DNA of 32,000 nt from an uncultured Candidatus Saccharibacteria bacterium (GCA_964543385.1 CAZIYE010000001.1:570001-602000); one strand, 5' to 3'. Shown: positions 4,191-12,850, numbered from the stretch's first letter. Notes: a model not told the origin generated them from the sequence alone. Made by a program: numbers and translations.

Positions 4191-5276
4191 TTATACGTTG
4201 AATCTAAATACTACGACGTCGCCGTCTTTCATTACATAATTTTTGCCTTCAGTGCGGACCAGACCATGTGATTTGGCGCCTAACCAGCCACTCTGTGCAT
4301 AAATATCCTGCCAGGGAACTATTTCCGCAGCAATAAAGCCTTTTTCAAAGTCACCATGTATTGCTCCTGCTGCCTTTGGCGCAGTGTCGCCTTGATGAAT
4401 TGTCCAAGCACGAGTTTCGTCTTCACCAGTCGTCAAATAGGTTTGAAGCCCTAATGTTTTAAAAGCCTCTTTTATTAAGCGATTTAGGCCAGAATCTGTT
4501 ATCCCTAGAGTTTCGAGGTATTCACTCTTTTCTGGGTCTGTAAGATCATTTAATTCTGCTTCAAGCTTGGCAGAAATCGGAATAAATTGATCGGATTTCT
4601 CAGCAGAGATTACCTTTTTCCACGAGTTATCTGCAAGCTGTTCTTCGCTGACATTAGCTATATATATAATAGGTTTTTGTGTCATCAGGCCAAGACCTTT
4701 TAGAACCTCTTTCTCCTGTTCGCTAAGGTCTGCTTCTCGAGCATTTTTACCAGCATAAAGCTGATCCTTTATCTTTTGCAGGCCAGAATGGGCAAATTTA
4801 GACTCTTTGCTGCCTGATTTAAGCTCTTTTTCGATAGAGAAAAGTCTTTTCTCTACAGTCGAAATATCGGCAAGTTGGAGCTCAGTTTCTATTGTTGAGA
4901 TATCATCAAAAGGGTTGATCTTGCCGTCGACATGAGTCACATTGTCGTCGACAAAAAATCTAGTGACCATGCCGACAGCGTCACATTCTCGGATATGGGC
5001 AAGGAATTTATTGCCAAGACCTTCTCCCTTGGAGGCACCACGAACAAGTCCTGCAATATCAACGAATTCGACGACAGCCGGTACAATCTTTTTTGATTTA
5101 GAAATTTCAGCCAATGGTTTCAAGCGCTCATCGGGAACCTCGACAATACCAACATTTGGCTCAATAGTGCAAAAAGGATAATTTGCTGCTTCTGCGTGAG
5201 AGCCCTTTACTAGAGCGTTGAAAAGTGTAGATTTACCTACATTTGGCAGTCCGACGATACCTATCTTTAATGACAT
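4191..5276 (-). CDS. ychF: Ribosome-binding ATPase YchF (Obg-family GTPase/ATPase)
   Basis: 361 aa. P-loop GIVGLPNVGKSTLFNAL, FCTIEPN, DIAGLVRGASKGEGLGNKFL, and the C-terminal TGS-like YVMKDGDVVVFRFNV. Confidence 0.93.
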   Translation of the reverse strand: MSLKIGIVGLPNVGKSTLFNALVKGSHAEAANYPFCTIEPNVGIVEVPDERLKPLAEISKSKKIVPAVVEFVDIAGLVRGASKGEGLGNKFLAHIRECDAVGMVTRFFVDDNVTHVDGKINPFDDISTIETELQLADISTVEKRLFSIEKELKSGSKESKFAHSGLQKIKDQLYAGKNAREADLSEQEKEVLKGLGLMTQKPIIYIANVSEEQLADNSWKKVISAEKSDQFIPISAKLEAELNDLTDPEKSEYLETLGITDSGLNRLIKEAFKTLGLQTYLTTGEDETRAWTIHQGDTAPKAAGAIHGDFEKGFIAAEIVPWQDIYAQSGWLGAKSHGLVRTEGKNYVMKDGDVVVFRFNV

Positions 5277-5328
5277 TTGTTCCTTTTACGTTTACTTTCA
5301 AATAATAATATTTAAAAAACTCCGGCTA

Positions 5329-5357
5329 AATATACCAGATCTAAGCGTATTTGTGAA
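5329..5357 (-). promoter_or_regulatory. Candidate sigma70-type promoter for ychF
   Basis: On the minus strand: TTCACA (complement of 5352-5357), 17 nt, TATATT (complement of 5329-5334). Motif match only, in AT-rich DNA. Confidence 0.3.
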
Positions 5358-5368
5358 CAAGCAAGCAT

Positions 5369-5397
5369 TTGACTAGCAAGAAATTTAGGGGTATAAA
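5369..5397 (+). promoter_or_regulatory. Near-consensus sigma70-type promoter driving the GC-rich small-ORF unit
   Basis: TTGACT (5369-5374), exactly 17 nt, TATAAA (5392-5397). It is divergent from, and back-to-back with, the ychF promoter candidate. Confidence 0.45.
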
Positions 5398-5454
5398 AAT
5401 ACTTAATCAACCCCCAAGGTTGACCATCCAAACCCCATAGGAGGTCACTGTATC

Positions 5455-5619
5455 ATGGCTAGCAAGCCGACAGGTAAAGGTTTCACCTCGTCGCAGATGA
5501 AATCTCGAAGGCTCAAGGAGCAGCGGCAAAAGCGCCGTGAAAGCGAAGCGCTCGAAAAGGCGCGACGTAATCGCGAATCGCAGATGCGGCAACAGGCCCG
5601 CCGGTGGCAACCGGCATAA
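5455..5619 (+). CDS. Small (54 aa) Arg/Gln/Glu-rich basic protein of unknown function; absent from the supplied ORF track
   Basis: AGGAGG (5439-5444) lies 10 nt upstream of ATG 5455. The ORF MASKPTGKGFTSSQMKSRRLKEQRQKRRESEALEKARRNRESQMRQQARRWQPA ends at TAA 5617-5619, and a terminator hairpin follows. Codon usage and GC content are atypical for the window, so a structured RNA is an alternative. Confidence 0.5.
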   Translation: MASKPTGKGFTSSQMKSRRLKEQRQKRRESEALEKARRNRESQMRQQARRWQPA

Positions 5620-5648
5620 CTTAGCGCACTAATGCGCACTCATACTAT

Positions 5649-5690
5649 CGGCTCCCTGCACCTCGTGTACGGGAGCCGAAGTCTTTTCAG
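5649..5690 (+). terminator. Intrinsic terminator after the small ORF
   Basis: CGGCTCCC (5649-5656) pairs with GGGAGCCG (5671-5678) around a 14-nt loop. It is followed by AAGTCTTTTCAG, and a further TTTTT run starts at 5696. Confidence 0.55.
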
Positions 5691-5780
5691 TCAAGTTTTT
5701 ATTACATGAAATTGCTATTTTATTGCAATATATTTCCGTTTTGTTGTTAGCATAATTGCTTTTTAGTATACTTAAAAGCA

Positions 5781-8700
5781 ATGACTACAGAAGATGGGGA
5801 CAAACCAATTGCGGTAGCCGAAAATCCCGCAGAAGGAAGCGAACTGGAGGAAATCGAAGCATCGGATACCGCTTTGCTGCACAGTGATTTTGATGTGGCT
5901 GTTTCTGAGGTTGTGAGTCGACAGGAAATAGCGGCTGCAGTTTTTGATGAAGAACAAACCATTTTATCGCAGGCAAGCTCAACGGAAGAATTTATTGGAA
6001 TTGAGAATGAGACAATCCCGATCGAATTAGTGGCTAGTATCCAGGGGATTGAAAAATTATTTGAAGAAATTGACGTAATTGATATTAAGGAATTCCCATC
6101 ACTGATCCTTAAAATCAAGATACTTGCTGATGAAGCAAAAAAATTGCTCAAAAAGTCAGAGGATGGTCTTCAGGCTAGTGGAGGTGAACTTCTTGGTATT
6201 GAAAGTGAAATCAAGAAAAAAACAACTACTCTGAGTGAGGAAAATGAAAAAGATTTTTGGGGAAAACTTTTCCGCATTGGAGAGCGCAGTTCGCTTAAGA
6301 AAGCAATAAAAGATTTGAAGGTCAAAGAAGGCAAAATTTCTACGATTAAAGATGATCAATTAGGCAGAAAAACTGATGCCGAAAAATTATTAAGAAAAGT
6401 TGAAAAATATCTTGATGATACCATTGTCAAACTTGTCACTAAGATTTTCCAAAGTTTAAAAGCTGAAACTGAAAAAACTAGAGAAAAAATGACTGATCCG
6501 CGGCTAAGAGCTGGTATGAATGAGCAGCTCGTCGATTCAGAATTTTTACCACTTTTTGAGCAACTAAAATTAGAGGGGAAATATTTTAGCGATGAGGAGA
6601 TATCCTTTTATCTGCAGCACAGAAAAGAAATTGCCAGAGACGGGATTCAAGATACGTATAGTATGTCAGCTGAAGATCGAGAAGCATATGAAGCCAAATT
6701 TGATCAAATCAGAAAATTAGAGGAAAGAAGTGGCTATAAATTATACTGGAAGTCAACGGCCCTGAGTCTCGATCCTGATCGAGGTTCGACACCAGATGAG
6801 AGATATGACGATATTTTCAAATTGTTAACAGAAATAGGTTTGCGCCAAAAAGTTGATGCCGTTCTTGATCTTGTGGGTGATCTTGGTATAAGCACTGAAG
6901 CAAAAACGAAAATCTATACTGAAACGAAGAAGGAGTTCTTGGAATATTATTATAGTTATCAAGATCTAGATAAACGCCCAGACATTCAAGTCTACGCTGA
7001 TTTTTGTGAAATGCCGGGAGAATTGGGAAGATGGCAAACAACTAGGGATATTTGTATAGAGTCCGGCCTGATTGATGAGGCAACTTTCCATCAAGCCGAG
7101 GAAATACTAATAGACTATTTACAGCAAAAATATCTTAGTAAAAAAGGTGGGGAACCAGATACACAAGTCGAACAGGTTTTTAACTTGGGTAATCCCGGGG
7201 TAATCCCCGTTCTTTATCAGTTTGTAGTTTTGCACGGTAGCCACTCAGGCGAACGGGCAATGAGGCGTCTTCTTACGCTAATAGACGAAAAATATTCCCA
7301 CGAAGAGGTGCTACAGTCAACCAAAGATTTGCCAGGTGATGACCAAAAAATTTTTGAGTTGCTCCTTGATAAGGACTCATGTCTTAATAGATTTGCTAGA
7401 GAAAGCTATTTATGGACAATGTTTGGTTACCTGGGAGATCCAAAAAAAACTCTGAGGAATGAGGCATACACCCAGAAATTGCTTGATAGTGGATACCCAG
7501 AAGACAAAGCAGCCGAGTTTTTTACCGGTAGGTGGTGGGGGAAGGACTTACTTATCGGTTGCGTTGAAATTGCCGAGGTCTTGGGCATAGATAAGGAGAT
7601 AATTATCGAAGATTATTTCAAAGACATCACTCGTTCAGTTTACCTTGAAAGTCCAGATTCTTTAGAGATTATTGGGTTAGTAGCAAAAGAGCTGGGAGTG
7701 CCAGCTCTAGAAATTTATCACCGCATTGAGTCTGAGATGGTGCGAAGTAAAGAAGATAAGCAAAGCGTTCATTCTCCGCAGGGCATTATTGAATCTTGCA
7801 GAGTTTTGTCTGACATTACCGGCGAAAGCTTGAAAGCTGTGGTTGATCGATACTATCCAATCAAGGCTATTCCAACGTATCAAGAAAAGTACGCTGAAAT
7901 ATTTGAGGAATTAGCACAGATACTAGAGGTGCCAGTCGGCTCTCTTGTTTTAGAGAATCTCTTACCACAATTGTCATCCAAAAGGGGAGATAGAGGCGGA
8001 CTCTATATTGTCAATAGCAAGGATAAAAGAAATTTTTTATTCAATTCTGTTAGCTCTTTTTTACAAACCAATCCCGTACTTAGTTCCACAGAAGATTATT
8101 GCAAAATTTTCAACCTATTCGATGAATTAAATAAAGATTGGTTGGGCTCTGATTTTGAAAAATTTTCTGATGAAGAAAAAGAGAAGATAAATTCAGGCAA
8201 AGTTGATCTTGCTAGATCCTTTGGAGAGATTTTAGCAAAAGGCGGAAATCGAGAAGAGATTATTCGGGCAATTCGGGCATTTGCTCCGGTTATATCTCTG
8301 GATGACTCAAAGTATGCTGAAATATTTACTCTTTTGGCTGAAACAATGGAAATGGCTCCAGAGTCGTTGGTATCAGAAACGCTTATTTTCGACGAAAAGC
8401 TCGGACTTATTCTACCAAAAATCAAAAAAAGTGACTCAAGGTGTTTGATCGGAAAGGCACTTTTTGAATTGGCCAAAACCGATCGAGTCCTAAGTTCTGC
8501 CAAAGAGATTAAAAAAGTTTTTAATGCTTTGTCGGCCCTCCAGTTGATTGGGGCAGAAGAAGATCCATCTGATGAAGAAATCAAGGTTATTTTTGAAACA
8601 AAGGAATACCTGATTGGCTATGTGAGGGAAAAAATGAAGAATGATCCAAATAAAATAGACATAATTGGAACACTTATTTCCCTCAAATCAGTTACCTTCC

Positions 8701-11408
8701 AAGACTTGTTGCTATTTTCATCTTTCCGAGAAGAATTTCCTGACTCGCAGACCTTTGAAAAGATTTTTTCGGATGGTTTAATTGCAATTGATCCTAATTT
8801 GCAGGAAATTTTTGATAATCCTAGGAAACTCGGCACAATGAGACCGCAAATTATTTCAAAAATTATCGATTATATTGAGGAGGCTTACAAGGGAGAGGAG
8901 ATTGATAATGAAAAAATAGCCAAGGAACTTCTTTCTTTGCTGAATAATATTCGTCATATCTTCGAAAGTAGTGATTCCACGATTATAGAAAAGCGTTCTC
9001 TCTTCTTGGAGAAATATACTTTAGAAGATGCCAAAGATCCTGATTTTAAAATTGCAGTCGAATCATTAATGGAACAAGGGCTGTCATTGCACGAAGCGAT
9101 TAAGCAGCTTGTTCAGGGTGATTTTGAAGATATTTTAATCGCCTCTGGTAGTATTGATATGCAAAAACACTACAAAAAGAAGCTGAAAGACCCAAATATA
9201 TCAGAAGAAGATCGGTTGGACTTAGAGAAAAAGCTTAAGTGGATGAAAGAGGCGTACCTACAAGCTGACCAGAGAAATAGAGAAATTTTTCAACGACTGC
9301 AGAGAGGGGGCCTGACAGAAGAGGAAAGAGCAGAAATTGCTTGTCCGCTAGCAACAAGTGTATCCCAAGTTGGTCCTCCAGATGTCACTTACCCGATCCT
9401 TGACCAAGGCACTCTATGTGATGCTTTACTTGGTGAAATTGCTAAAGACCAGGAGAATAATCTTGGAGCTCATATTTCAAAAACAAGTCGTGTACCAGGA
9501 GATAGAAGTACTTTGGCTGGTAGATTGCCTTCTTATGGTAATCCTCATGGCACTCAGGTCAACCGTATCTATGGAGATGTCAGTGCTAATAAATATCAGT
9601 CATATGGACCGGATGGTACAGCAGAAACACACTTTCAGATGGGGCCAGCTCATCAATGCATTATGCTCGGTCTCCCCAGTACCGAAATATCTGCCATTGT
9701 TATTTCTGATACCTCCTTTCTTGCGGACCAAAAGAAGTACATTGCCATGAAAAACTTGTTTATTCCAATTCTCGATTCCAGTGGCAATAATCTCTGGACT
9801 CCTGAAGAGTTCGATCAAATGAAAATATTTTATTATGCGCTGAATTATAAGGGCTATCCCTTAGCCGTTATTGATAATGTTTATAAATATTATCTGGAAC
9901 TAAATCAGACAACTGAGAAAACAAAACATAATATTGTCTTGAATAAGGCCGTTGATTTGGTTAAAAAGCAGATAGAAAATGATGAACAAGGTTTTGAGGA
10001 TTTGGCGGTGCTCGTTGACTTCTTGAAGAGCAATGATCTTAACACCAAGGATATTCAATGGTATGAGGAGGCAGATTTCGAGCAAGTGATGCAAATGGTT
10101 GAAGAAAATGTCGGCGCAAAAAATCGTTGGAAAGCGAGGGATATACTCTTCATATATCCGGATGACCAAGCTAAAACTCATAGAACAATTGGCGATAGCG
10201 TTGATTATGAAAGGCAGATAACGAGGCGTCCCCATGGTTTCATCGACTCATTTCTGGACGATCAGCTTGGATACATTTCCCCTGGAAATATAGATGAAAG
10301 ACGAGCTGCCGAAGGCCACCTAACAAGTTTAATGTTCCGCGATTCGATTTCAAGGCAGGCGCGAGAAGGCATAATTGTTGATGACGTGATTGAAACTGCA
10401 GAGTATATGACAGAAAAGAAGAAGGAGCTGATGGTCAAGATTTGGGAAGACGCATGGGAAGATATATTGAAGATGGATTCCATTGATAAAGCTATGGCGG
10501 GGCTTTATAAAAAGGCAATAATCCCAGTTGTGACTGGTAGCGGTGGCCGAGGAGAGATAACGTTGGGCTCAGATTTGGATTATTCACTTCTAGTTGATGA
10601 TGATCACTTGTTGGAAATACTTCCGGAGAGAACTGATCTAGCTCAATTTATTAAAGATCTTGGTAATTTTGTTAATAATGTTCTGGCCATATCAATTAAT
10701 AAGTCTTTAGGTGAAGCGGGGATCAGAGCTGATGCTGGATTGGCACGGAAAGACCGGCAACCGTTTAGCCTGATTAGTCGGATTCGGCAATTTGAGATTA
10801 ATCCTTCTCAGGGCCGCCAGGAAGAAGAGCCGACTGAGATTATTAGTAATTATCCTCTTTTTGCAGAACACCAAGGGATTGTAGCTAAATGCAAGGAAGA
10901 TCTGATTGTTCACAATCAATCTGCCCATCTACTAGACTCATATATTCTTCGAGATCTGGAAACTGGCTTTGGAAAGGCTTCTTTCACGGCTGAATTTGAG
11001 AAATTATATGCCTGTGCAGCAAGTGGAGAATTATTGCAAAAAATTAAAGAATCACTCCAGCGTTCGTTAGTCTTCAAAATTAACTATCTTCTCTTTTCTG
11101 CTTTTGACAAGGGAACTATAGATCCGAGTGAGGCTAGTAAAATCCCTTCTGGAACGATTGATACAATTAATTTTCTTAAAGATCATAAAATTTTGACTGA
11201 TCAAGAAGCGGAAATTTGTATTGAATTATGGGCAATCACTTACAAAATTAGATTTTTGGGGGAAGTATTCTCTCCAGAAGGTCAGAATGCAGATGAGCTC
11301 AAGAAGGTGAAGAATATTACATTCAAACTAGATGATATATCCTTTGCCGAAAGAGTTCGCCTTTTCGATCTGCTTAAGCTTTTCAAGGATAATGTACTTT
11401 ATAAATAG
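5781..11408 (+). CDS. Giant (1875 aa) soluble protein. C-terminal GlnD/GlnE/DUF294-type nucleotidyltransferase with a helical substrate-binding-like domain; the N-terminal ~1550 aa are unassigned
   Basis: Single uninterrupted ORF with an ATG start. I saw no signal peptide or hydrophobic TM segment. The Pol-beta NTase signature GSGGRGEITLGSDLDYSLLVDD is at 10536-10601 (G1586...D1598, D1600). The downstream helical region resembles DUF294_C/GlnD substrate-binding domains. The N-terminus is acidic and helical with internal repeats. Confidence 0.85.
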   Translation: MTTEDGDKPIAVAENPAEGSELEEIEASDTALLHSDFDVAVSEVVSRQEIAAAVFDEEQTILSQASSTEEFIGIENETIPIELVASIQGIEKLFEEIDVIDIKEFPSLILKIKILADEAKKLLKKSEDGLQASGGELLGIESEIKKKTTTLSEENEKDFWGKLFRIGERSSLKKAIKDLKVKEGKISTIKDDQLGRKTDAEKLLRKVEKYLDDTIVKLVTKIFQSLKAETEKTREKMTDPRLRAGMNEQLVDSEFLPLFEQLKLEGKYFSDEEISFYLQHRKEIARDGIQDTYSMSAEDREAYEAKFDQIRKLEERSGYKLYWKSTALSLDPDRGSTPDERYDDIFKLLTEIGLRQKVDAVLDLVGDLGISTEAKTKIYTETKKEFLEYYYSYQDLDKRPDIQVYADFCEMPGELGRWQTTRDICIESGLIDEATFHQAEEILIDYLQQKYLSKKGGEPDTQVEQVFNLGNPGVIPVLYQFVVLHGSHSGERAMRRLLTLIDEKYSHEEVLQSTKDLPGDDQKIFELLLDKDSCLNRFARESYLWTMFGYLGDPKKTLRNEAYTQKLLDSGYPEDKAAEFFTGRWWGKDLLIGCVEIAEVLGIDKEIIIEDYFKDITRSVYLESPDSLEIIGLVAKELGVPALEIYHRIESEMVRSKEDKQSVHSPQGIIESCRVLSDITGESLKAVVDRYYPIKAIPTYQEKYAEIFEELAQILEVPVGSLVLENLLPQLSSKRGDRGGLYIVNSKDKRNFLFNSVSSFLQTNPVLSSTEDYCKIFNLFDELNKDWLGSDFEKFSDEEKEKINSGKVDLARSFGEILAKGGNREEIIRAIRAFAPVISLDDSKYAEIFTLLAETMEMAPESLVSETLIFDEKLGLILPKIKKSDSRCLIGKALFELAKTDRVLSSAKEIKKVFNALSALQLIGAEEDPSDEEIKVIFETKEYLIGYVREKMKNDPNKIDIIGTLISLKSVTFQDLLLFSSFREEFPDSQTFEKIFSDGLIAIDPNLQEIFDNPRKLGTMRPQIISKIIDYIEEAYKGEEIDNEKIAKELLSLLNNIRHIFESSDSTIIEKRSLFLEKYTLEDAKDPDFKIAVESLMEQGLSLHEAIKQLVQGDFEDILIASGSIDMQKHYKKKLKDPNISEEDRLDLEKKLKWMKEAYLQADQRNREIFQRLQRGGLTEEERAEIACPLATSVSQVGPPDVTYPILDQGTLCDALLGEIAKDQENNLGAHISKTSRVPGDRSTLAGRLPSYGNPHGTQVNRIYGDVSANKYQSYGPDGTAETHFQMGPAHQCIMLGLPSTEISAIVISDTSFLADQKKYIAMKNLFIPILDSSGNNLWTPEEFDQMKIFYYALNYKGYPLAVIDNVYKYYLELNQTTEKTKHNIVLNKAVDLVKKQIENDEQGFEDLAVLVDFLKSNDLNTKDIQWYEEADFEQVMQMVEENVGAKNRWKARDILFIYPDDQAKTHRTIGDSVDYERQITRRPHGFIDSFLDDQLGYISPGNIDERRAAEGHLTSLMFRDSISRQAREGIIVDDVIETAEYMTEKKKELMVKIWEDAWEDILKMDSIDKAMAGLYKKAIIPVVTGSGGRGEITLGSDLDYSLLVDDDHLLEILPERTDLAQFIKDLGNFVNNVLAISINKSLGEAGIRADAGLARKDRQPFSLISRIRQFEINPSQGRQEEEPTEIISNYPLFAEHQGIVAKCKEDLIVHNQSAHLLDSYILRDLETGFGKASFTAEFEKLYACAASGELLQKIKESLQRSLVFKINYLLFSAFDKGTIDPSEASKIPSGTIDTINFLKDHKILTDQEAEICIELWAITYKIRFLGEVFSPEGQNADELKKVKNITFKLDDISFAERVRLFDLLKLFKDNVLYK

Positions 11409-11482: not shown

Positions 11483-12850
11483 ATGAAAAAAATGAACAAA
11501 AAACAATCTGTTGCCCTAAGCTCGGTTTTTGCTAGTTTTGGTTTGACGGCTATGAAGTTAGTTGTAGGTATCGCTACTGGCAGTATGGGTATAATCTCTG
11601 AGGCAGCTCACTCAGCATTGGATTTTGTTGCCGCTTTAATGACCTATTTCGCAGTTAACATTGGAGATAAACCTGCTGATAAGAGGCACCCTTATGGCCA
11701 TGCTAAGGTTGAAAGTGTCTCTGCACTCTTAGAGACATGTTTGCTTGTCCTTACTAGCGCGTGGATAATCTATGAGGCAGTAAAAAGGTTAATTCACGGC
11801 AAATCGGAGGTTGAAGTTGCTTGGTATTCATTCACTGTGATAATAATCTCTATTGTCGTGGACATATCTCGGTCTAGAGCACTTTCTAAGGTTGCAAAAG
11901 AGACTAAAAGCCAGGCTCTGGAAGCCGACGCTTTACATTTCAGTTCAGACATTTTAAGCTCCTTGGTCGTTCTGGTGGGATTAATCTTTGTTTATTTCGG
12001 CAATACCACAGCTGACTCAATCGCAGCGATCATAGTTTCTTTTGTAGTACTATATGCTGCCTATGATCTAGGGCGTAAGACAATTAACGTTTTAGTAGAT
12101 ACTGCTCCAGAGGGTTTGGTTGATGAAATAAATCAGGCTGCCAGTAGTGTTGCCGGTGTCATAGGAGTTGAAAAAATTCGTGCCAGAGCAGTTGGGGCGG
12201 CAGTAATCATCGATATCACAGTATATCTGCACAGAAAAAACAATCTTCTCCTAACTCAAAAAATCTGCCAGCAAATAGAGGATAAAATAAAAAAAGATTT
12301 TTCCGATTCCGATATTACTATTCATACTAAACCTCTGCCACTAAATAGCGAAACAATTTTCGAAAGGGTTCAATTAATTGCCTCGACACATGGTCTCGCG
12401 GCCCATAATATTATTTTACACAGAGACTTCAAGGGCAAAAAATTAGACTTTGATCTTGAGGTTGATGGTAATTTAAACTTGCAAGAGGCTCACAGAATAG
12501 CTTCAGATTTGGAAAGAGAGATAGAAGCTGAATTCGGGGATATAGAAATAAATAGTCATATAGAACCACTGAAATCCGAGATTATCTCCGGGAAAAATGT
12601 AAGTGGAGTGAAAGAGGCGAAGTTAAAAAACAAAATTTTACTTATAACAAGAAACATTCCTCTCATAAGAGACATTCATGATATTTCAATAATTGAGGAT
12701 AATGATAAACTTTTCATTTCCCTCCATTGTCTATTCGACAAAAATTCTTCTCTGGATGAAGTTCACAGCGTAACGAGTAGACTTGAATACACAATTCGCG
12801 AAAATATGTCTGAGGTCTCCAAGGTTTCTATCCACGCTGAGCCAGCCTAA
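11483..12850 (+). CDS. Cation diffusion facilitator (CDF) family metal transporter with three tandem cytoplasmic domains
   Basis: 455 aa with six predicted TM helices. Site-A motifs are HSALD (TM2) and HFSSD (TM5). Three successive CTD-like modules follow, each ending in an H-x-[EK]-P motif (ITIHTKPL, INSHIEPL, VSIHAEPA). Confidence 0.88.
   Translation: MKKMNKKQSVALSSVFASFGLTAMKLVVGIATGSMGIISEAAHSALDFVAALMTYFAVNIGDKPADKRHPYGHAKVESVSALLETCLLVLTSAWIIYEAVKRLIHGKSEVEVAWYSFTVIIISIVVDISRSRALSKVAKETKSQALEADALHFSSDILSSLVVLVGLIFVYFGNTTADSIAAIIVSFVVLYAAYDLGRKTINVLVDTAPEGLVDEINQAASSVAGVIGVEKIRARAVGAAVIIDITVYLHRKNNLLLTQKICQQIEDKIKKDFSDSDITIHTKPLPLNSETIFERVQLIASTHGLAAHNIILHRDFKGKKLDFDLEVDGNLNLQEAHRIASDLEREIEAEFGDIEINSHIEPLKSEIISGKNVSGVKEAKLKNKILLITRNIPLIRDIHDISIIEDNDKLFISLHCLFDKNSSLDEVHSVTSRLEYTIRENMSEVSKVSIHAEPA

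Follow-up and report, generated by a model that had tools for sequence, protein, structure and literature searches.

Two reports describe DUF1127-type small arginine-rich proteins, among them the 54-aa YjiS of Salmonella (PMC11707872, PMC12501420). They resemble the protein considered here in being about 50 aa long, rich in arginine and encoded by stand-alone genes that are often missed by automated annotation. Unlike DUF1127 (PF06568), the present family has other motifs, and none of its five members gave a match to that Pfam model at E values up to 10. DUF1127 is also widespread in Proteobacteria, whereas the 54-aa family is confined to one genus-level clade of ultra-small bacteria. Further comparisons are offered by the small basic ribosomal and ribosome-associated proteins bS21, bL35, bL34, bTHX, and bS22/SRA, which are 27-70 aa long and have pI values above 12. 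Shared with these are size, basicity, a helical or extended form (predicted here) without a hydrophobic core, strong expression signals, and neighboring translation genes (ychF, rpsF, rpsR, and efp). Unlike them, the 54-aa protein matches no S21 or L35 model, the genome carries its own rpsU and rpmI elsewhere, and restriction to a single clade is unusual for a ribosomal protein. Arginine-rich-motif (ARM) peptides bind RNA hairpins, as lambda N does with boxB and as do HIV Rev or Tat. A short arginine-rich predicted helix and conserved RNA hairpins also occur together on the transcript described here, which provides a working analogy. There is no homology to the ARM peptides, however, the hairpins stand at the ordinary positions of a 5' stabilizer and a terminator, and the likeness is one of co-occurrence alone.

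In the window (the whole 32,000-nucleotide stretch of DNA that was analyzed), positions 5369-5690 are best explained as a monocistronic gene that stands by itself and encodes an extremely basic product of 54 residues, which would represent a previously undescribed family restricted to one genus-level clade. We give this reading a probability of about three in four. Annotation of uncultured ultra-small bacteria systematically overlooks small proteins, and this locus provides a clean example with comparative coding proof. It also illustrates that GC islands of AT-rich genomes are not necessarily RNA genes. If the product is truly ribosome-associated or RNA-binding, it would be a lineage-specific addition to the pared-down translation apparatus of Patescibacteria. 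A small-protein gene with conserved 5' and 3' mRNA hairpins is nonetheless a fairly ordinary lineage-restricted small gene and a modest curiosity, and its general importance is modest because the protein is an orphan with a very narrow distribution.

Layout of the locus and evidence for a coding frame

The small gene is divergent from ychF, and the promoter-like elements of the two genes stand back-to-back. The coordinates originally predicted for the promoter-like element, AGGAGG, ATG, stop codon, and 8-bp hairpin with its T-tract were all exact when the sequence was read again. The same holds for the positions of the short hairpins CGCGA/TCGCG, CCGGT/ACCGG, and GCGCA/TGCGC, for the two copies of an in-frame 9-nt repeat, and for the presence of two antisense ORFs. 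By position, the features are as follows (basis in parentheses):

5329-5357, minus strand: promoter-like site of the divergent ychF, TTCACA, 17 nt, TATATT, the -10 being preceded by TG (consensus scan)
5369-5374 and 5392-5397, plus strand: small-gene promoter-like element, TTGACT, 17-nt spacer, TATAAA (direct reading)
5407-5423, plus strand: 5' leader hairpin, TCAACC, loop CCCAA, GGTTGA (present in five lineages)
5407-5610, minus strand: antisense ORF, 67 aa (ORF listing)
5439-5444, plus strand: Shine-Dalgarno sequence AGGAGG, 10 nt 5' of the ATG at 5455 (direct reading)
5445-5639, minus strand: antisense ORF, 64 aa (ORF listing)
5455-5619, plus strand: predicted coding sequence (CDS) of the 54-aa basic protein, MASKPTGKGFTSSQ...ARRWQPA (homologs, synteny, and dN/dS)
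5491-5499 and 5578-5586, plus strand: 9-nt in-frame repeat TCGCAGATG (direct reading)
5617-5619, plus strand: stop codon TAA of the small CDS (direct reading)
5624-5637, plus strand: small post-stop hairpin, GCGCA, CTAA, TGCGC (direct reading)
5648-5687, plus strand: 3' hairpin and T-run, TTTT at 5684-5687 (conserved pairing in five sequences)
5648-5656 with 5671-5679, plus strand: outer stem of the 3' hairpin, 9 bp; the inner stem is CAC/GTG
5649-5656 with 5671-5678, plus strand: 8-bp core of the 3' hairpin, CGGCTCCC/GGGAGCCG (direct reading)

The 9-nt repeat is kept in none of the relatives in the homolog alignment. We estimate that about 0.05 such repeats would arise by chance in 165 nt and attach no meaning to it.

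Relatives of the 54-aa protein were sought by six-frame search, by HMMER, run exhaustively on 1.84 billion representative proteins, and by profile search of 5.8 billion clusters. The six-frame search identified a 55-aa homolog with 46-47% identity in a genome of the same genus (G001). Two further relatives came from the HMMER search and a fourth from the profile search, so that the homologs beyond this genome are those of G001 and of three metagenome contigs (P0002, P0003, and P0004). The family is thus tiny, with five versions in a total of about 15 billion proteins. An identical 962-bp contig occurs in JGI 3300045131. They range from 53 to 55 aa and share an N-terminal M-x-KPTGxGFxSxQ and a C-terminal ARRxQPA; 20 alignment columns are invariant, mostly at both ends. 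All five have an ATG with GGAGG 8-11 nt upstream, and the differences in length between them are whole codons (in-frame indels).

The original prediction offered a small nucleic-acid-binding protein, a non-coding RNA, or a dual-function transcript and proposed that the codon pattern be examined in relatives. The protein-gene reading fared well, as the frame is intact in 5/5 versions and sense-frame dN/dS is 0.15-0.37 for unsaturated pairs (Nei-Gojobori). Differences in the sense frame concentrate at third codon positions (3, 4, and 11 by codon position for G001 versus L041). Conserved residues are spelled differently in different lineages. The Arg pair before W/L/F is CGC CGG here versus AGA AGG in G001, and the conserved RNR is CGT AAT CGC here versus CGC AAC CGC in G001. 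Frame, start, and ribosome-binding site are kept, and dN/dS is low in the sense frame only, as is general for protein-coding genes. Taken across the five versions, these comparisons establish that the small-gene reading frame is under purifying selection.

Conserved flanking elements and tests for an RNA gene

Divergence at neutral sites was gauged from the neighboring ychF. The YchF proteins of the G001, L040, and L036 lineages are 85-91% identical to that of this genome, and pS between three deep lineages is 0.71-0.81, which amounts to saturation. Against this background four non-coding blocks are strikingly conserved: the ychF promoter, the TTGAC block, the leader hairpin, and the 3' hairpin. 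Conservation of the promoter block and of both hairpins despite saturated synonymous sites in ychF points to constraint. The independent unit that had been proposed is supported by this pattern, in that the promoter-like element, the Shine-Dalgarno sequence, and the leader and 3' hairpins are kept in all relatives. The ychF promoter reads TTCACA-17-TGnTATATT on the minus strand, and its blocks AATATACCAGAT and TTGTGAA are kept in the relatives. TTGAC and (G)GTATAAAA of the small-gene element are kept in G001, L036, and L040. The element itself, TTGACT-17-TATAAA, agrees with sigma-70 at 10/12 positions and has a -10 without the usual final T, although the promoter rules of the host phylum may differ. 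The consensus scan did not call it, as it accepts only -10 hexamers with T as the sixth base; nor did the scan call the 3' hairpin as a terminator.

The leader hairpin begins 2-4 nt past the predicted transcript start and is found in 5/5 lineages. Its loop is 5, 6, or 7 nt long across three deep lineages, a variation that suits a hairpin in RNA better than a DNA operator of fixed spacing. The outer and inner stems of the 3' hairpin are 100% paired in 5/5 sequences, and its sequence is almost invariant. The pair 5651-5676 is G-C in three sequences, G-U in L041, and A-U in G001. The U-run that follows has four residues here and six in L036, and it is interrupted in the G001 group. Loops are conserved as well, with CACCTYGTG in the 3' hairpin and CCCCAA in the leader. 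The 3' hairpin is probably a terminator and 3' stabilizer. The small post-stop hairpin is kept in the L036 lineage as GCGCA-CTTA-TGCGT and is absent from the G001, L040, and L041 lineages.

Among 44 genomes of the order, the 3'-hairpin pattern is confined to this genus, and a search of metagenome contigs with its DNA pattern returned only the P0002 lineage and chance matches. Matches to the leader pattern elsewhere were read at six loci, and all lie within coding sequence, for example in a conserved GDPYKDTAGPAINPIIKV stretch. Pairing of the Shine-Dalgarno sequence with the anti-SD-like CACCUC of the 3' loop or with the C-rich leader was considered by eye and rejected, the complementarity being too short. 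The L041 contig starts (positions 1-40) with a Nextera adapter, CGTGGGCTCGGAGATGTGTATAAGAGACAG, joined directly to TAATCAACC, and the latter is exactly the predicted first bases of the small-gene transcript, just 5' of the leader hairpin. This junction may be a coincidence, or it may mark a cDNA 5' end if the library was derived from RNA.

Three alternatives concern what is transcribed and how it acts. That one of the two antisense ORFs is the real gene would fit the codon-aligned antisense frame, which is open in 5/5 versions. The openness of this frame is expected (probability 0.08-0.58 per lineage), because the proteins have few of the Leu or Ser codons that can produce stops on the opposite strand; its dN/dS is 0.49-1.47. 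The other antisense frame is interrupted by stops in the relatives, and no SD-like sequence was seen by eye 5' of the antisense starts. Both listed antisense ORFs are codon by-products, and an antisense gene is barely credible. A structured non-coding RNA, whose open frame would be incidental, had also been put forward, in line with the GC-rich island in an AT-rich genome, and the CDS by itself folds with z scores of -1.98, -2.77, and -4.53 in three lineages. Yet each lineage has its own predicted helices within the CDS, alifold gives an unfavorable covariation term (+4.2), the substitutions are protein-like, and the Shine-Dalgarno sequence and ATG are conserved. The Rfam search that had been recommended returned no known RNA family and leaves the protein reading standing: the whole window has no match at gathering thresholds, and at E values up to 10 the region 5200-5850 has only Acido-Lenti-1 on the minus strand (11.1 bits versus a threshold of 37, E = 10), a match at the level of noise. 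ARAGORN identified no tRNA or tmRNA. We find no support for conserved structure inside the CDS, read the hairpins of the untranslated regions as real RNA elements, and judge a non-coding RNA to be highly improbable. A cis-regulatory or dual-function transcript, with the hairpins as recognition sites (autoregulation like that of an ARM-hairpin pair, or a 3'-UTR-derived sRNA), is unlikely but deserves more weight, and it can hold together with the protein-coding reading. The hairpins, loops included, are conserved beyond the needs of a plain terminator while neutral sites are saturated, and the whole-transcript fold compared with shuffles has z scores of -4.06 here and -4.63 in G001. GC-rich stems evolve slowly anyway, however, and no regulon is apparent, as this genome has no second copy of either hairpin and none turned up in 43 further genomes from the order. 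Covariation is limited to a single pair, and the analysis of it called for in the original prediction was not significant with five sequences, as 205/500 shuffles do as well. The case for the flanking elements therefore rests on their conservation at saturated neutral divergence.

On the preferred reading, that of a protein-coding gene with its own promoter and hairpins, the 5' hairpin would shield the mRNA from decay that depends on the 5' end. The 3' hairpin would end transcription and block 3' exonucleases, yielding a stable, well-expressed message. This division of roles, with protection at the 5' end and termination plus stabilization at the 3' end giving good expression, is rather probable.

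Near the stop codon, a 6-bp hairpin GCCGGT-NNNN-ACCGGC lies over the RR(W/F)QPA codons at 5600-5615 in the window and at 6144-6159 in L036. The G001 group has AGA AGG CTC at these codons and a different hairpin, GAGCC-AGAA-GGCTC, a few bases upstream. In these few sequences there is a hint that a hairpin near the stop codon is maintained by different means across lineages.

Properties of the predicted product

With 17 K+R and 5 E, the 54-aa product has a net charge of +12; it lacks Cys, His, and any hydrophobic segment. In the AlphaFold2 model (pLDDT 87.6), residues 12-50 form a single helix, which includes neither the first 11 residues, conserved at the N-terminus, nor the QPA at the C-terminus. 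Profile searches of Pfam, NCBIfam, PHROGs, and PDB gave no credible match, a Foldseek search with the single-helix model gave no matches, and tblastn against the genome itself identified no paralog or parent gene. Two ribosomal proteins were considered and rejected as diverged relatives. The ORF does not match the bS21 model (PF01165), and the rpsU of the genome is at C1:117786-117941 (29.4 bits). For bL35 (PF01632), the only match in the genome at E values up to 0.1 is rpmI at C2:73810-73977. By eye, K-x-TGKG-x-F resembles the N-terminus of L35, a likeness for which the ORF has no model match.

A single cationic helix that lacks a core, as modeled here, is hardly able to fold or function by itself. 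Its mode of action would be the binding of a polyanion, most probably rRNA or the ribosome, with the KPTGxGFxSxQ and ARRxQPA motifs making specific contacts. We offer this assignment, to the rRNA or ribosome or to other RNA, tentatively, as somewhat short of an even chance. The ribosome is the likeliest partner on account of the strong expression signals and of the constant neighborhood of ychF and ribosomal-protein genes. That neighborhood is weak evidence, because other genera have unrelated genes in the slot beside ychF. The next options are general nucleic-acid binding and autoregulation by way of the gene's own hairpins. More specific proposals are doubtful: a clade-specific RNA-binding protein that serves as a new accessory ribosomal or ribosome-associated protein, or that autoregulates through the hairpins of its own mRNA as an independently evolved ARM-hairpin pair.

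Absence of the ribosomal protein uL30 is typical of CPR/Patescibacteria. The present genome (0.90 Mb, 98.7% complete) agrees with this, and uL30 (PF00327) was not detectable in it.

Composition, gene order, and distribution

A count by hand had given 96 G/C among the 165 nt of 5455-5619, and computation returned the same figure, 58.2%, versus 38.3% for the genome. Only 0.35% of 165-nt windows genome-wide reach 58% GC. GC3 of the small ORF is about 0.62 versus 0.34 for the long ORFs of the genome and 0.35 for ychF. When the protein is recoded with genomic codon usage, GC falls to about 47%, so amino-acid content explains only part of the excess. Roughly half of it comes from the content of Arg, Ala, Gly, and Pro and the remainder from synonymous codon choice. 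The 11 CGN codons reported among 12 Arg codons were a miscount, the true figures being 10 CGN and 1 AGG among 11 Arg codons. CGN codons make up 44% of genomic Arg codons in total and AGA 41%; at 44%, the binomial probability of at least 10/11 CGN is 0.0018. Copies of the small gene in relatives have 48-51% GC and a GC3 of 0.39-0.48, close to the GC3 of their own ychF (0.37-0.42). They encode 7-8 Arg and 8-11 Lys, versus 11 and 6 here. The GC island had been taken as a property of the element, a view that does not survive this comparison; it is an exaggeration particular to this genome and not a family trait. Possible sources of the GC-rich copy are allelic replacement from a GC-richer relative and local biased conversion.

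In all contigs that are long enough, efp-rpsR-ssb-rpsF-ychF lie on one strand and the small gene, a CDF transporter gene, and a 5'-3' exonuclease gene on the other. Every contig that includes the upstream flank has the small gene divergent from ychF; the L041 contig ends too early for this to be seen. In the relatives, the CDF gene (455 aa) directly follows the small gene. The gene after the small gene in L036, G001, and L041 starts MKKMNKK..., like the CDF gene (L036 6162-6289). In the present genome the CDF gene is at 11483-12847 (77% identity to L036), and only here does a giant gene of 1875 aa (5781-11408) stand between it and the small gene. By this comparison of gene order, the giant gene is an insertion particular to this genome. 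Read-through coupling to it, which had been suggested from its position, thus cannot be a conserved feature. A functional link to the CDF transporter was also considered and rejected, since the ORF is missing upstream of a CDF homolog from another family.

Beyond the genus, unrelated genes adjoin ychF in other genera of the family, with the exonuclease gene directly after it in two, and the regions upstream of ychF in 20 family genomes contain no similar ORF. Homologs were found neither in the other 42 genomes of the order nor in the other 160 genomes of the class, and a profile search over 162 genomes gave only weak chance matches outside the genus. A phage collection searched by tblastn yielded no homolog, and scans of genome and metagenome contigs with peptide patterns gave no confirmed relatives. 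Across the genomes compared, the small gene is old within one genus-level clade and was not found outside it.

Composition and gene order bear on the two explanations that remain. A foreign mini-gene of islet or 'moron'-like type, recently imported from a donor of higher GC into a variable site flanked by core genes, would account for the high GC and GC3 and the atypical Arg codons. It would also accord with the arginine-rich S21 of the same genome, which has 14 Arg yet only 42% GC, and with the unrelated genes beside ychF in other genera. However, at least three lineages with saturated synonymous divergence in ychF have the gene at this site, which makes it old in the clade; the relatives' copies are ordinary in composition, and neither a phage match nor a donor homolog outside the clade was found. 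We consider import improbable. Gene order also invites the idea of a leader or regulatory ORF coupled to the gene downstream, either that for the giant nucleotidyltransferase protein or that for the CDF transporter, as the small ORF immediately precedes the giant gene here, in the same orientation, and the CDF gene in relatives. But the downstream gene is not the same throughout, the small and giant genes are set apart by a strong hairpin and by a distinct promoter-like region rich in AT, the CDF homolog of the other family lacks the ORF, and 54 conserved aa are long for a leader peptide. Coupling of this kind is very unlikely.

Two minor observations concern ychF in other genomes. In a member of the family (L024, G016), a CRISPR-like array adjoins ychF; its repeat, ATCTACAAAAGTAGAAATCTATTGTAGGTATTAGAGA, is present in at least five copies with spacers of about 24-30 nt. 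In G009, G004, and G018 (L029-L034), a single open frame of about 390 aa contains the YchF match in two pieces, approximately residues 1-218 and 226-361, which suggests that YchF of these genomes carries an insertion of about 30 residues.
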